DNA of 64,000 nucleotides from Gemmatimonadota bacterium (GCA_020344215.1 CP070815.1:2600644-2664643), one strand, 5' to 3'; counted from the stretch's first letter, positions 34,081 to 40,397 are shown. Notes: generated from the letters alone by a model not told the origin. Made by a program: numbers and translations.

Positions 34081-34482
34081 CTACGAAGCCGCTACGTGAC
34101 AGAGCACGCAGTACTTGTTGTCCCTACCCTCGTGATCGGCAGGTGCGTCGGGTACCGGCTCCATCGCCCCGGCCGTGTGGCACATCATGCAGTTGTCTCG
34201 GCCCTCGATCGGGTGAGATATGGCCGCCGGAACCGTCGTCTGCACTGCAGCGTCCGCCGCGTGACACATCAGGCAGATGTCGTTCGGGCGCTCCGCATGG
34301 TCCGCCGGCGCGTCGGGCACTGGCTCCATCGCCCCGGCTGTGTGGCACATCATGCAGTTGTCTCGGCCCGCCGCGTCGTGCGTCATCACCGGCGGCGTCT
34401 TCCAGCCCTCCTGCTGCCAGGCGAAAGCGGCCAGAGCGACAAGCAGGAAAACCGATGCTGCGATCGAACGTCGATGGCTCAT
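34081..34482 (-). CDS. Small membrane-anchored tetraheme c-type cytochrome with an internal tandem duplication
   Basis: N-terminal TM anchor; 4 CxxCH motifs (CMMCH, CLMCH, CMMCH, CVLCH). The module GRDNCMMCHTAGAMEPVPDAPADH is repeated twice at protein level, and a 60-bp stretch is repeated at DNA level with about 3 mismatches. Confidence 0.8.
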   Translation of the reverse strand: MSHRRSIAASVFLLVALAAFAWQQEGWKTPPVMTHDAAGRDNCMMCHTAGAMEPVPDAPADHAERPNDICLMCHAADAAVQTTVPAAISHPIEGRDNCMMCHTAGAMEPVPDAPADHEGRDNKYCVLCHVAAS

Positions 34483-34668
34483 GTCTCAGCTCCCTTTCAG
34501 ATGAGGGCCACGTCCACCTTCGGCCTCCACCTCGGACGTGACGTGTCCTTACCTGACCACTACCCGCTGCGTAGACCTTAGGAAAGACAGCTCCGGCCGG
34601 CAAGGGGTGGCTTCAAGTGACCCAACCCGCCCGGTGCCGGTGGCCTGCACAGGCGAAGGCGGGCCTGG

Positions 34669-35895
34669 CTAGCGACCCTGGTCCAGCTCCTCCAGGAACG
34701 CCATGAGGTTCGCCATATCCTCGGCGCTCAGGGTCGGGAAAGACCTCTCCTCGGCCGCTGGAGCAGCCGCCATCTTGACCGAATGGTTCCAGAGCGAAGC
34801 GATAGCGGCGGCGGGCGAGCCGAGGCCGCTGACCCAGGCGAGATCGGCGGCGGTCGTCCCACCTGATCCGCCGAGCGCATGGCAGGTCAAGCAGCTCTTC
34901 TCCTGCAGCAGCTGTTCACCGAGCTCGGCGTCGCCAGGTTCGGCGAAATACTCGATGTAGTACAGGTAGGCGACGAGATCGGCCATCTCGCCGCCGCCGA
35001 TCTGCGTGACGGACAGGCCCCTACCTTCCATCGCTTCGAGCATCGCCGGCGCCTTGTTCCACATGGCCGCGGCGAACTCGGTCAAGCCCCACTGCCGACG
35101 CCGTTCCGCGAGATCCGGGCCCGAGCGGCCGCCGACGCCCTGCACGCTATGGCACTCGTTGCAGCGCTTCTCGAGGAAGACGGTGCGCCCGGCCTCTGCC
35201 CGGCCCGGGAGCACGTACACGTGCCCCTCTAGCGGCTCGACGGCCACCGACCCGATATACGTGATCAGATCGATGAGCTCGGAGCCATGAAAGGCGGGAC
35301 GCACGACTCCCCGCTCCTCCATGATCTCCGCCATGGGCGCACCATGATTCCACATCGAGGCTGCCACGAGGATAGGTGATCCGTACTGGCCGACGAAGTT
35401 GAGGTTGGGGCCGACATCGCCGCCGTACTCGCCCACTCGGTGACAGACGAAGCACTTCTTCTGTGTGAACAAGTACTTCCCAAGTGTCAGATTACCTGGC
35501 GGATCGAAATAGTGCAGCGTAAACAGGAAACCGATCAGGTCCGCCGCTTCCCGTGCCGTCATCTCCGGATGCACGATCCCCTGTTCTTCCATTTCGGCGT
35601 CCATGTGCGGGGTATGGTTCCAGAGCGTCGCCGCGAGCTCGTGGAACGACCGCCGCTGCCGGGTGCGGCCCAAGTCAGGTCCCCACGAGCCGCCAAGCCC
35701 GTCGACGGAATGGCACCTGGCGCACCCCTTGCCCTGGAACACCTGGGCGCCGGCCAGCGGGTCCTGCGAGAGCTCCGGGGTCTCCTGGCCAGGCGCCAAC
35801 CGCGGAGATGCCACGATCAGGGCTACGACGATGCCGCCCAGCCCCATCGCTCTCCGATTGGTCCTGGCTATCAGAAGATCGAGCTTGCCGGTCAT
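34669..35895 (-). CDS. Periplasmic c-type cytochrome made of four tandem class-I monoheme domains
   Basis: Signal/TM at the N-terminus; four CxxCH motifs (CARCH, CFVCH, CNECH, CLTCH), each followed by a GPDL(N) motif as in c551/c552-type domains. Confidence 0.85.
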   Translation of the reverse strand: MTGKLDLLIARTNRRAMGLGGIVVALIVASPRLAPGQETPELSQDPLAGAQVFQGKGCARCHSVDGLGGSWGPDLGRTRQRRSFHELAATLWNHTPHMDAEMEEQGIVHPEMTAREAADLIGFLFTLHYFDPPGNLTLGKYLFTQKKCFVCHRVGEYGGDVGPNLNFVGQYGSPILVAASMWNHGAPMAEIMEERGVVRPAFHGSELIDLITYIGSVAVEPLEGHVYVLPGRAEAGRTVFLEKRCNECHSVQGVGGRSGPDLAERRRQWGLTEFAAAMWNKAPAMLEAMEGRGLSVTQIGGGEMADLVAYLYYIEYFAEPGDAELGEQLLQEKSCLTCHALGGSGGTTAADLAWVSGLGSPAAAIASLWNHSVKMAAAPAAEERSFPTLSAEDMANLMAFLEELDQGR

Positions 35896-36007
35896 GGTTG
35901 CCCCCTACATCGCAACGACACGGATGGTGGGTATTCGTATGAAGGTGTGATGGTACGAGGGCGCGGCTTACCAAATTCAAGTTAGAGCTCGGCAGCAACA
36001 ATAGAAA

Positions 36008-36050
36008 GCCGCCGTCACCGGCCGCCTTTGGCGGCGCCGGTGACGGCGGC
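36008..36050 (-). terminator. Rho-independent terminator after the decaheme cytochrome gene
   Basis: GCCGCCGTCACCGGCCGCC / GGCGGCGCCGGTGACGGCGGC stem followed on the minus strand by TTTCTATTGTTGC. Confidence 0.6.
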
Positions 36051-36067
36051 TCTTCGCTCCCGACGCC

Positions 36068-38475: not shown

Positions 38476-38600
38476 TTTTTCCTCCCGGATCACGGATAAA
38501 TGGTGGGTGCGAATGGGCAGACCCGCAGCCGTACGCAGAGGGACGTCCTGCCCAACTGGAGGCTGCCCTACAAGCTTCAGATACCTTTTTTTCAGGTCAA

Positions 38601-38636
38601 GGCCCTGCCGCCAAGCGCGGTCATGGCGGCAGGGCC
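38601..38636. other. Perfect 12-bp stem-loop between the nonaheme cytochrome and beta-barrel genes (intra-operon RNA structure)
   Basis: GGCCCTGCCGCC-aagcgcggtcat-GGCGGCAGGGCC, flanked by T7 upstream and an A-run downstream. Confidence 0.5.
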
Positions 38637-38662
38637 CAGCATTCTGCGTCCAGTGTGGGCTC

Positions 38663-40201
38663 CTATAAGCCCAGTCCGTAGAATTCGATAACGGCCTCGA
38701 TCGACGCCTCGAGCAGCGCCCTCAGCAGATCGGGGTTGTGGATCCCTTCGCCGCTCGCCTTGTGCGCCGAGACATGGATGCCGTCCTTCGTGCCGTCCGC
38801 CGGCTCCTCGTCATCCCCGGCCAGCCCGAAGTAGAGCGTCGCGTCGCCGAAGCAGGGGCGGTCGTGGGTGTACGCCAGCTGCGCGTTCCACCACGCGCCC
38901 TCCGCCACGGTGATCAGATCGTCGTCCGGATATAGGGTCAGCGTGTCCGGGAAGACTACTAACGGAAGCAGGCCGCCATCGCCTTGGTCGAGCACGCAGT
39001 CGGCGTCCTCGTCATCCCACAGCTGATCCAGCAACAAGTTGATTTCCGCCACGAGGTCTTCCAGCATAATCTGGCCTTCACCGCCGTGGCAGGTATCGCA
39101 GACGCGGAAGTCACGATCCGTGTTCTCGCACGGCCCGGGGACCGGCACGCCGGTCACAGCGTCCAGGCAGCTGATCGCCTCGAACGTGTGGCCTACTGAA
39201 TTGAAGGTCTCGGGCTCCGTGACCTCGAACGTGGTCACGTGACAGGTCGCGCACATCTCATCGGTCTCACCGTGCGCGTGGGGCTCCGGCAGGAATCCGC
39301 CGAACGTGGGTGACAGGAAGTCCGGTGGTATCCAGCCGACGTTCTCGCCCAGAATCAGGAGGCCCTGCGCCGCATGCGGGCCATGGCTCGACGGCGGGGT
39401 CCCGCTTCTCGCGTGGCAGCGGATGCACAGGTTCGTCAGGCCAGACGAGTGGGGGTCGGCACGCAGGTTACCCTCGAAATCGGTGCCGTGCGGGTCGTGG
39501 CAGACGACGCAGTGGATGGGCAGCGGATCGGTCCCGTCCTTCTCCAGGTAGTTAGACGTCTCGCCGAACACATCGACCAACGCCTGCCGACCCTCGTGGC
39601 ATATCCTGCAGCTGGCTCGCGACGTCGTGGAACCGCTCTCCTCCCACGCCGGCGTCGATCCGTGGTTCGACTCCTCCCACTGCTCGACGAACGGATGGTG
39701 CGCGCCGTTATGGCACTCACCGCAGCCGACCGTCGCCGTTGTGCCCGCCTCCACCGAGCAGAGCGGCGCGTTGGCCGCCGTCGGGCCGCTCGCGTGCTCA
39801 AGGCCGGAGCCGTGGCACGACTCGCACTGCACGTCGTGGTATCGCTCATCCCCGGTCGCCGGCCAGCCCACGTCCTCCACCTCGAGGTTGCCCAGCTGCG
39901 AGACCGTGTGGCAGTTCTCGCAGTAGGCGGCCGCGTGGTCGCTCGACTGCAGGCCCGCCCAGGCGTCCGCATGCCCGGTCGTGTGCCAGCTCGCCTGGTA
40001 CGTCGCGTGGCAGTTGCCACACGCCGTCTGCTTCGCCTCGAACGAGCCGTCGACCATGTAGTAGCCGAGGAACCCCGCCACGTCCGCGGGCTCGTCGAAG
40101 ACGGGTCGGTCCGTGAACACCGTCTCCTCGTCAGTACACCCCACCGCCAGGGCCATGCCCAGCAGCACGGCGACCATGGTTAGCTTGGTAGCTCGTCTCA
40201 T
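38663..40201 (-). CDS. Nonaheme c-type cytochrome lipoprotein
   Basis: Lipoprotein signal MRRATKLTMVAVLLGMALAVGC; 9 CxxCH motifs. GGGAGG RBS 9 nt before ATG 40201. The ORF-track start at 40303 is a likely extension. Confidence 0.85.
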   Translation of the reverse strand: MRRATKLTMVAVLLGMALAVGCTDEETVFTDRPVFDEPADVAGFLGYYMVDGSFEAKQTACGNCHATYQASWHTTGHADAWAGLQSSDHAAAYCENCHTVSQLGNLEVEDVGWPATGDERYHDVQCESCHGSGLEHASGPTAANAPLCSVEAGTTATVGCGECHNGAHHPFVEQWEESNHGSTPAWEESGSTTSRASCRICHEGRQALVDVFGETSNYLEKDGTDPLPIHCVVCHDPHGTDFEGNLRADPHSSGLTNLCIRCHARSGTPPSSHGPHAAQGLLILGENVGWIPPDFLSPTFGGFLPEPHAHGETDEMCATCHVTTFEVTEPETFNSVGHTFEAISCLDAVTGVPVPGPCENTDRDFRVCDTCHGGEGQIMLEDLVAEINLLLDQLWDDEDADCVLDQGDGGLLPLVVFPDTLTLYPDDDLITVAEGAWWNAQLAYTHDRPCFGDATLYFGLAGDDEEPADGTKDGIHVSAHKASGEGIHNPDLLRALLEASIEAVIEFYGLGL

Positions 40202-40397
40202 CACTGAGCGCCTCCCGTTACACTGGTACCCGACTGGAACTGCTCGACAAAAGAGGTTTTCCGGCCCATGCCACGCACATTTCGGGCCGCTGGGGCTGAT
40301 CATCTAACCGTCACGCTGTTAATAACTTACAGAAACCTGACGGTTTCAATATCGCTCGAGGGTCGGGGCATCGTGCCCCAAAGAGGGCTAATTGCTA

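Follow-up and report, generated by a model that had tools for sequence, protein, structure and literature searches.

We analyzed a 64,000-nucleotide stretch (the window) of a Gemmatimonadota metagenome-assembled chromosome, in which multiheme cytochrome genes flank a gene for a predicted outer-membrane beta-barrel. An earlier note on this DNA had proposed that five same-strand genes form a porin-cytochrome module for extracellular electron transfer (EET). All five open reading frames (ORFs) were present at the coordinates reported earlier, contiguous and on the minus strand. The number of CxxCH motifs was 9 for the ORF at 38663-40303, 0 at 36970-38493, 10 at 36068-37039, 4 at 34669-35895, and 4 at 34081-34482, as the note had counted them, and we refer to these genes in that order as g1 to g5. 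With refined starts, g1 spans 38663-40201 (512 amino acids), g2 spans 36970-38475 (501 amino acids), and g3 spans 36068-36973 (301 amino acids), each with a GGAGG-like Shine-Dalgarno sequence 5 to 10 nucleotides upstream. The g2 start at 38475 agrees with the NCBI protein model (501 amino acids). The g2 product is 100% identical to NCBI JSV86_12275, and the g1 product is 100% identical to JSV86_12280. Each of the five proteins has one N-terminal hydrophobic segment. Base composition is uniform across the region at about 65% GC, and therefore we saw no signature of a horizontal-transfer island. A promoter and terminator scan of the g1-g5 operon gave results no different from those of shuffled sequence.

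The g2 product is the only one of the five that lacks hemes. An AlphaFold2 model built from a 50-member family alignment (pLDDT, 84.7; pTM, 0.77) gave a signal helix followed by 22 beta-strands with no plug domain. The barrel-like character claimed earlier was thus borne out, the predicted fold being neither soluble nor helical. In the model, the barrel is larger than diffusion porins and has the size of a TonB-receptor barrel, but it is empty. No Pfam or NCBIfam match to g2 was found at an E value of ≤1, and the profile of the 50-member family retrieved nothing meaningful from PDB sequences, with no MtrB chain at an E value of ≤10. MtrB_PioB (PF11854) matched none of the 50 family members. 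Weak generic matches to Porin_4 or OMP_b-brl were seen in 8 of the 50 members each. Foldseek searches with the g2 model gave matches of a generic kind only, to the barrels of porins, ushers, or TonB receptors, all with TM-scores of <0.5. The absence of a Mtr/Pio signature, first noticed in g2 itself, therefore extends to its 50 relatives, and no unrelated outer-membrane protein family was named by the Pfam, NCBIfam, or PDB profile searches. At the level of the structural model, g2 is confirmed as a genuine barrel of the outer membrane that belongs to no classified family.

The first hairpin of the g2 model is unusually long. In its loop, residues 73 to 95 (approximately 38190-38260, minus strand), the cysteines C88 and C95 are invariant and a YYRSG-like motif is conserved. 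By standard outer-membrane-protein topology this loop should be extracellular, and the cysteine pair suggests a disulfide-stabilized extracellular element. A role for it in docking is plausible.

Directly downstream, g3 encodes a decaheme c-type cytochrome that is translationally coupled to g2. Its GTG start at 36973 overlaps the TGA stop of g2 as GTGA, just as the earlier note had described, with GGAGG 6 nucleotides upstream. The protein contains 10 CxxCH motifs and 21 histidines, or about 27 amino acids per heme in the mature form. Pfam places an MtrC/MtrF II-IV pentaheme domain in g3 (41.8 bits; cutoff, 30), and the g3 family shares a conserved N-terminal F(P/D)HxxHxxLFxxCxxCH motif. We found no match of g3 to TIGR03508, and the g3 family profile failed to find MtrA (6r2q_A) at an E value of ≤10. 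The MtrA-like heme density and a histidine content sufficient for bis-His ligation are consistent with g3 being a bis-His heme wire. Two apparent barrel-cytochrome fusions in our representative library (P0318 and P0323) were set aside because they look like frameshift read-throughs across the 4-nucleotide overlap and not like genuine fusions.

Translated from the start at 40201, g1 reads MRRATKLTMVAVLLGMALAVGC, and the lipobox cysteine is invariant in 41 homologues. With its nine CxxCH motifs, g1 is the nonaheme lipoprotein that had been predicted. A structural model of g1 (pLDDT, 78.9) is mostly helical. Its closest folds are OcwA and OmhA, well ahead of the next group, which comprises NrfA, octaheme nitrite reductase (ONR), and HAO. 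Single-sequence searches of g1 and g3 against the PDB yielded nothing useful, and OcwA and OmhA emerged only when the g1 family profile was used. That profile matched OcwA with an E value of 9e-15, OmhA with 8e-12, and MtrA with 8e-9, followed by c554 and HAO. Although the identity of g1 to OcwA/OmhA is only about 23%, homology to OcwA (6I5B) and OmhA (6QVM) is thus detectable in both sequence and fold. A nearly invariant HHP motif of g1 (H167-H168) aligns with the VHHPH region of OcwA, in a register that repeats make ambiguous. No match of g1 to TIGR03507 (OmcA/MtrC) was found, and the model resembles OcwA/NrfA-type folds and not MtrC. Against TIGR03508 (MtrA/DmsE), g1 scored 38.7 bits, below the cutoff of 192.2.

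In electroactive Gram-positive bacteria, OcwA and OmhA are the terminal reductases of iron oxides at the cell surface; within the NrfA/HAO superfamily, they constitute a single clade (PMC6703420, PMC9250108). This clade has two penta-coordinated hemes with conserved distal histidine pairs (PMC9250108), and both nitrite and hydroxylamine are in vitro substrates for reduction by OcwA (PMC6703420). Because OcwA and OmhA lead both the fold and the profile matches, g1 is, as judged from model and alignment, a diderm, lipid-anchored relative of the Gram-positive surface reductases. Several close relatives (L008, L010, L014, L015, L021, L032, and L037) have a second 9-heme protein of about 490 amino acids upstream of g1, about 2.1 to 2.4 kb upstream of the barrel. 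This protein, which the window lacks, is weakly similar to g1 and is at times encoded on the opposite strand.

The two remaining cytochromes also matched their earlier descriptions. The g4 product (34669-35895) consists of four tandem class-I (His/Met-type) monoheme cytochrome c domains. Its four CxxCH motifs fall in repeated CxxCH...GPDL...WNHxxxM units, and Pfam Cytochrom_C matches it over four stretches (E value, 6e-29). In 22 loci, one of which (L002) has a barrel only 31% identical to g2, a g4 homologue is encoded downstream of the barrel operon. The g5 product (34081-34482) is a small tetraheme cytochrome of 133 amino acids with two diheme repeats, and its single N-terminal hydrophobic segment would serve as a signal peptide or anchor. 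Homologues of g5 were found in 17 loci; the copy in L002 directly follows Rieske and cytochrome b genes.

An exhaustive HMMER search with the g2 family returned 810 cluster representatives at an E value of ≤1e-3 and 226 at ≤1e-30. When each GTDB species was represented by one genome, a scan gave 456 matching stretches. Among the best 80 of these 456, every record that names a phylum was Gemmatimonadota, and a few were labeled only "bacterium"; the carriers in this set included Gemmatimonadales, Gemmatimonadaceae, Gemmatimonas sp., Longimicrobiales, and Candidatus Kutchimonas denitrificans. With a Gemmatimonas-type barrel as the query, the best 120 matches bore only the names of metagenome-assembled genomes (MAGs). 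With no cultured carrier among them, immediate testability is limited.

We then have the question of what surrounds the barrel gene elsewhere, for which ORFs and heme motifs were called in 83 fetched loci whose barrels are 31 to 81% identical to g2. An ORF with at least 7 CxxCH motifs starts at the barrel stop in 70 of the 74 loci having more than 900 nucleotides downstream. The four exceptions are fragmented or misparsed, and the multiheme ORFs are still there. A 4-nucleotide overlap of the barrel stop with the cytochrome start, as ATGA or GTGA, was seen in 80 of 81 loci. A g1-like protein of about 500 amino acids with 8 or 9 hemes is encoded upstream on the same strand in 58 of the 64 loci with more than 2.6 kb upstream. 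The cytochrome downstream of the barrel carries 9 to 18 hemes overall, with 16 in most lineages (42 loci) and 9 or 10 in the clade of the window. The core triad recurred across 79 GTDB loci and was also present in all 4 distant metagenome loci with precomputed gene calls. Among the fetched GTDB loci with available flanking DNA, none had the barrel without an adjacent multiheme cytochrome.

The cytochrome association on which the earlier note had staked its reading is therefore kept almost without exception in both the metagenome and the GTDB loci. The same order and overlap recur in about 80 independent genomes, an arrangement that, by gene order, is far beyond chance. Because order and overlap are kept while the barrels are only 31 to 81% identical, the lipoprotein-barrel-cytochrome association is best read as an ancient functional unit and not as the result of shared recent ancestry. 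Most distant-clade operons have an extra transmembrane (TM)-anchored cytochrome with 17 or 18 hemes between the g1-like gene and the barrel (L001, 8124-9989; L005, 7989-10004). These operons use a 16-heme cytochrome after the barrel, compared with the 9- to 10-heme form in the clade of the window.

The layout of a lipoprotein multiheme cytochrome, an outer-membrane barrel, and a decaheme cytochrome gene coupled to the barrel gene resembles MtrCAB of Shewanella and MtoAB/PioAB. Further points of likeness are the MtrA-like heme density of g3, its MtrC/MtrF pentaheme-domain match, and the weak detection of MtrA by the g1 profile. Membership in the Mtr/Pio group was nevertheless ruled out by the Pfam, NCBIfam, and PDB profile searches of the g2, g3, and g1 families. 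The g2 barrel has 22 strands, whereas MtrB has 26, and 28 trans-membrane motifs were predicted from sequence for MtrB/PioB-type proteins (PMC4245776). Unlike MtrB, PioB, and MtoB, g2 matches neither PF11854 nor TIGR03509, and the failure of the g3 family profile to find MtrA sets g3 apart from MtrA/DmsE. In place of an OmcA/MtrC-type protein, with two pentaheme domains alternating with beta-barrel domains in the MtrC type, the cluster has the OcwA-like g1. A true MtrCAB has been reported in Gemmatimonadetes as a single, horizontally acquired case (PMC8805035).

The porin-cytochrome conduits (Pcc) of Geobacter combine, in one cluster, an 18- to 22-strand porin, a periplasmic cytochrome with 5 to 14 hemes, and an outer-membrane lipoprotein multiheme cytochrome (PMC4245776). 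The 22 strands of g2, the 10 hemes of g3, the 9 hemes and lipobox of g1, and their contiguous same-strand genes fall within this description, which covers the OmbB-OmaB-OmcB and Ext clusters; a CbcL-type inner-membrane partner, described below, is a further likeness. However, the lipoprotein gene comes first here and last in ombB-omaB-omcB, and no NCBIfam or Pfam link was found; the comparison with OmbB, OmaB, and OmcB was made by description. No named Geobacter protein appeared among the matches listed for the g2 and g1 protein searches. A BLAST survey from 2014 found Pcc in six phyla and did not mention Gemmatimonadetes (PMC4245776).

OcwA of Thermincola potens and OmhA of Carboxydothermus ferrireducens belong to monoderm Firmicutes, where they occupy the cell wall or S-layer without a barrel, whereas g1 is a diderm lipoprotein whose gene is linked to those of a barrel and a cytochrome. 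Porin and multiheme clusters divergent from Mtr/Omc have also been described as PCC3 and PCC4 of Fe(II) oxidizers and as EET1-4 of peat Acidobacteriota and Verrucomicrobiota (PMC5566968, PMC13264449, bioRxiv 10.64898/2026.05.27.727921). These are of the same discovery class, some with OcwA-like cytochromes and Rieske/cytochrome b neighbors, but they come from other phyla. PCC3 has median heme counts of 34 and 21, compared with 9 and 10 here, and a conserved inner-membrane protein with five TM segments, of which there is no counterpart within g1-g5 (PMC5566968). The peat preprint of May 2026, some of whose porin-multiheme clusters have OcwA-like cytochromes, does not mention Gemmatimonadota (bioRxiv 10.64898/2026.05.27.727921). 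Generic surveys list Gemmatimonadota among multiheme or iron-cycling phyla without describing the present cluster (PMC9769843, PMC8478452, PMC13264449), and one CbcL homologue was counted in Gemmatimonadetes in 2018 (PMC6295460). Taken together, this kind of system is already known and is increasingly found in MAGs. In the literature searched, the family itself, the OcwA-type partner in a diderm, the phylum-wide conservation, and the links to hydrogenase and Rieske/cytochrome b appear to be undescribed.

Several neighboring genes may connect the cluster to the quinone pool. On the plus strand at 24747-27584, a gene encodes a 945-amino-acid protein with 19 CxxCH motifs and at least four C-terminal TM helices. 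Pfam reports Cytochrome_C7, c3_2, and Paired_CXXCH together with Ni_hydr_CYTB (37.6 bits; cutoff, 30.1). The CbcL/MtoC/MtrH architecture consists of an N-terminal multiheme c domain with 3 to 23 CxxCH motifs and a HydC/FdnI-like cytochrome b and has been implicated in quinol/quinone exchange for EET (PMC6295460). The 24747-27584 product has this architecture, with 19 c-type hemes and a HydC/FdnI-type diheme cytochrome b. A tblastn search with it gave matches in 27 of 84 loci, a count to which cross-matches of the multiheme part with other cytochromes can contribute; in the relative L002, the architecture is split. From its recurrent proximity we infer that the CbcL-like protein is a candidate quinol:cytochrome oxidoreductase feeding the conduit. 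The CbcL-like gene lies between one for a heavy-metal P-type ATPase (22264-24465), just upstream of it, and hypC.

In relatives, other modules occur in the same operon. TM-anchored proteins with 17 to 21 hemes and a NapC/NirT N-terminal module were found in L004 and L005, and the L005 protein passes the Pfam threshold for that module. A multiheme-Rieske-cytochrome b module occurs in 22 to 24 of the 83 loci, usually directly downstream and on the same strand. It comprises a 7- to 9-heme cytochrome, a Rieske protein, and cytochrome b and was seen in L002 (13788-16980) and also in L010, L015, L017, L032, L047, L053, L056, L057, L064, L074, and L079. In L002 the g4 homologue lies on one side of the module and the g5 homologue on the other; in the window, which has no such module, g4 and g5 are direct neighbors. 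Because NapC/NirT-like, CbcL-like, and Rieske/cytochrome b modules share operons with it, the putative conduit is, by gene order, repeatedly coupled to three kinds of quinol:cytochrome c oxidoreductase.

Hydrogenase maturation genes bracket the space between the CbcL-like gene and g5, at 27816-30296 on the plus strand and 30443-33733 on the minus strand. After the CbcL-like gene come hypC (27816-28118), hypD, and hypE on the plus strand, and hypF, hypB, and hypA run on from g5 on the minus strand. Members of the close clade keep this arrangement beside the cluster. We found no structural gene for a [NiFe] hydrogenase in the window. In seven distant loci (L040, L043, L055, L061, L069, L076, and L077), the large subunit of an uptake-type [NiFe] hydrogenase, its cytochrome b, and a HyaD protease are encoded within 10 kb of the barrel, and in L055 the hydrogenase genes lie immediately upstream of g1 on the same strand.

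Directly upstream of g1, a minus-strand gene at 40648-41622 encodes a GGDEF diguanylate cyclase (Pfam GGDEF; E value, 2e-43). A cyclase with 76 to 91% identity to it occupies this position in 14 related loci and is thus more conserved than the barrel (50 to 81% identical in the close clade). The cyclase is a possible regulator of the cluster. An Rfam search of the whole window gave no match at the gathering threshold, with one chance-level match at an E value of ≤1 in 33600-42500 and no c-di-GMP riboswitch. The aa3-type oxidase that the earlier note had placed in this genome is encoded in the window at 57371-63449, with CtaA (57371-58330), CtaB (59024-59905), COX3 (60288-60938), and COX1 (61052-62830). 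A further, unscanned ORF lies at 62793-63449, and the GC content of the aa3 region is 0.60 to 0.63, below that of the rest of the window.

We believe that g1-g5 quite probably encode a porin-cytochrome trans-outer-membrane electron conduit of a new, phylum-wide family. Gene content, the barrel fold, OcwA homology, and the conserved synteny and overlap are observations made here; complex formation, topology, direction, and substrate are drawn by analogy with MtrCAB and the Geobacter Pcc. In the proposed mechanism, g2 would sit in the outer membrane as a plugless 22-stranded sheath, and g3 would lie inside it as an insulated heme wire, like MtrA in MtrB, with the overlapping GTGA keeping the production of g3 in constant proportion to that of g2. 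As the surface cytochrome, g1 would dock at the extracellular side and, as the terminal oxidoreductase, make contact with the substrate outside the cell. On the periplasmic side, g4, as a periplasmic or membrane-tethered relay, and g5 would link g3 to quinol-oxidizing enzymes of the inner membrane. The interface with the quinone pool would be the 19-heme CbcL-like protein here and, in relatives, the NapC/NirT-like multiheme proteins or the multiheme-Rieske-cytochrome b complex of the same operon. The conduit interpretation of the earlier note is supported at the level of sequence and model. The observations that it had named as contrary, such as an unrelated barrel, homologous clusters free of cytochromes, or cytochromes confined to the inner membrane, were each looked for and none was found; the modeled g2 barrel supplies the outer-membrane component.

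Given a conduit, outward flow is the somewhat likelier direction, because the nearest characterized relatives of g1 are terminal reductases and because genes for quinol dehydrogenases and uptake hydrogenases recur together with the operon. Electrons would then pass from quinol to extracellular Mn(IV) or Fe(III) oxides, humic matter, or partner cells, with H2 possibly as a donor. Several points weigh against this picture as a whole. The threading of g3 through a 22-strand barrel is proposed by analogy with MtrB, which has 26 strands. The lipobox is all that the g1 sequence reveals of its location, and the protein could face the periplasm. The CbcL-like gene is 6.5 kb from g1-g5 and on the other strand, with hyp genes between. 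Inward flow would suit the class-I domains of g4, the linkage to Rieske/cytochrome b, and the aa3 oxidase close by just as well, and the superfamily of g1 includes enzymes of soluble substrates (NrfA, ONR, and HAO), with OcwA itself active on nitrite and hydroxylamine in vitro.

The same conduit could therefore run inward, taking electrons from extracellular Fe(II), Mn(II), or reduced minerals or humics through g3 to g4 and g5 and then downhill to the aa3 oxidase or to a Rieske/cytochrome b complex. This would resemble the lithoheterotrophic energy supplement proposed for the MtoAB, PioAB, and PCC3/PCC4 systems. The four His/Met-type domains of g4 are of a type that usually serves terminal oxidases, and the aa3 oxidase is encoded in the window together with assembly genes. 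A Rieske/cytochrome b module lies beside the operon in 22 to 24 relatives, a linkage that has been noted for the putative iron-oxidizer cluster PCC4 (PMC5566968, PMC13264449), and CbcL/MtoC homologues occur in Fe(II) oxidizers as well (PMC6295460). Several carrier MAGs, judging from their record titles, come from sand filters and groundwater. However, the closest characterized relatives of g1 are terminal reductases (PMC6703420), the NapC/NirT-like quinol dehydrogenases and uptake hydrogenases in relatives' operons suggest flow from quinol to the outside, and oxidizing conduits of the MtoAB/PioAB type typically lack an outer lipoprotein cytochrome (PMC5566968). On this balance, we consider inward flow the less likely direction, though a serious alternative.

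The two other explanations do without a conduit. If g1 were a periplasmic, lipid-anchored octa- or nonaheme enzyme from the NrfA/ONR/HAO/OTR superfamily, with a soluble substrate such as nitrite, hydroxylamine, or an oxyanion of sulfur or selenium, then g3-g5 would supply its electrons and the barrel would be a substrate or product channel. The profile matches of g1 to c554 and HAO, the activity of OcwA toward nitrite and hydroxylamine (PMC6703420), and the alignment of the HHP motif with the OcwA region that carries distal histidines of a penta-coordinated heme (PMC9250108) would all suit such an enzyme. Yet the surface metal reductases OcwA and OmhA match g1 best in both structure and sequence, with the enzymes far behind. 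A plugless 22-strand barrel is far larger than a small anion needs, and a wire of 9 to 18 hemes would be unnecessary. Moreover, the conserved partner of the barrel is the downstream multiheme cytochrome and not g1, with the overlap in 80 of 81 loci, a coupling that a periplasmic-enzyme role for g1 does not explain. We regard this role as improbable. That g2 is an unrelated outer-membrane protein, such as a nutrient porin or export channel lying by chance among periplasmic cytochrome genes with no functional module, might be argued from its exclusively generic porin, usher, and TonB-receptor fold matches and from the weak Porin_4 or OMP_b-brl matches in 8 of 50 family members. The gene order and the translational coupling persist, though, in about 80 genomes with barrels down to 31% identity, and wherever flanking DNA was available the barrel had a multiheme cytochrome beside it. 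Because the synteny and the 4-nucleotide overlap are conserved, a chance neighbor is effectively excluded.

Gemmatimonadota are among the commonest phyla of soils and sediments, are regarded as aerobic heterotrophs, and are physiologically poorly known. Porin-cytochrome conduits are the known route by which diderms exchange electrons with minerals, electrodes, and partner cells, and the characterized families, Mtr and Pcc, are concentrated in Proteobacteria and Desulfobacterota. The module described here would add a third, structurally distinct solution, with a new 22-strand barrel family, a new 9- to 18-heme insert family, and an OcwA-type outer cytochrome, and in evolutionary terms it would connect the surface reductases of Gram-positive bacteria with the conduits of Gram-negative ones. 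The carriers' genes are currently annotated only as "hypothetical protein" and "cytochrome c3 family protein," and the module could serve as a genetic marker for EET potential in soils, sediments, groundwater, and sand filters. Hypotheses raised by the cluster include H2- or organic-driven reduction of Mn, Fe, or humics, or else metal oxidation. Tentatively, and with slightly less than even confidence, we propose that Gemmatimonadota carry their own phylum-wide conduit, whose surface cytochrome shares ancestry with Gram-positive terminal metal reductases and which in many lineages is part of one operon with an uptake hydrogenase and quinol dehydrogenases. If this is true, many Gemmatimonadota would use minerals or humic matter as respiratory electron acceptors or as electron sources and would represent an unrecognized sink or source in soil redox cycling.

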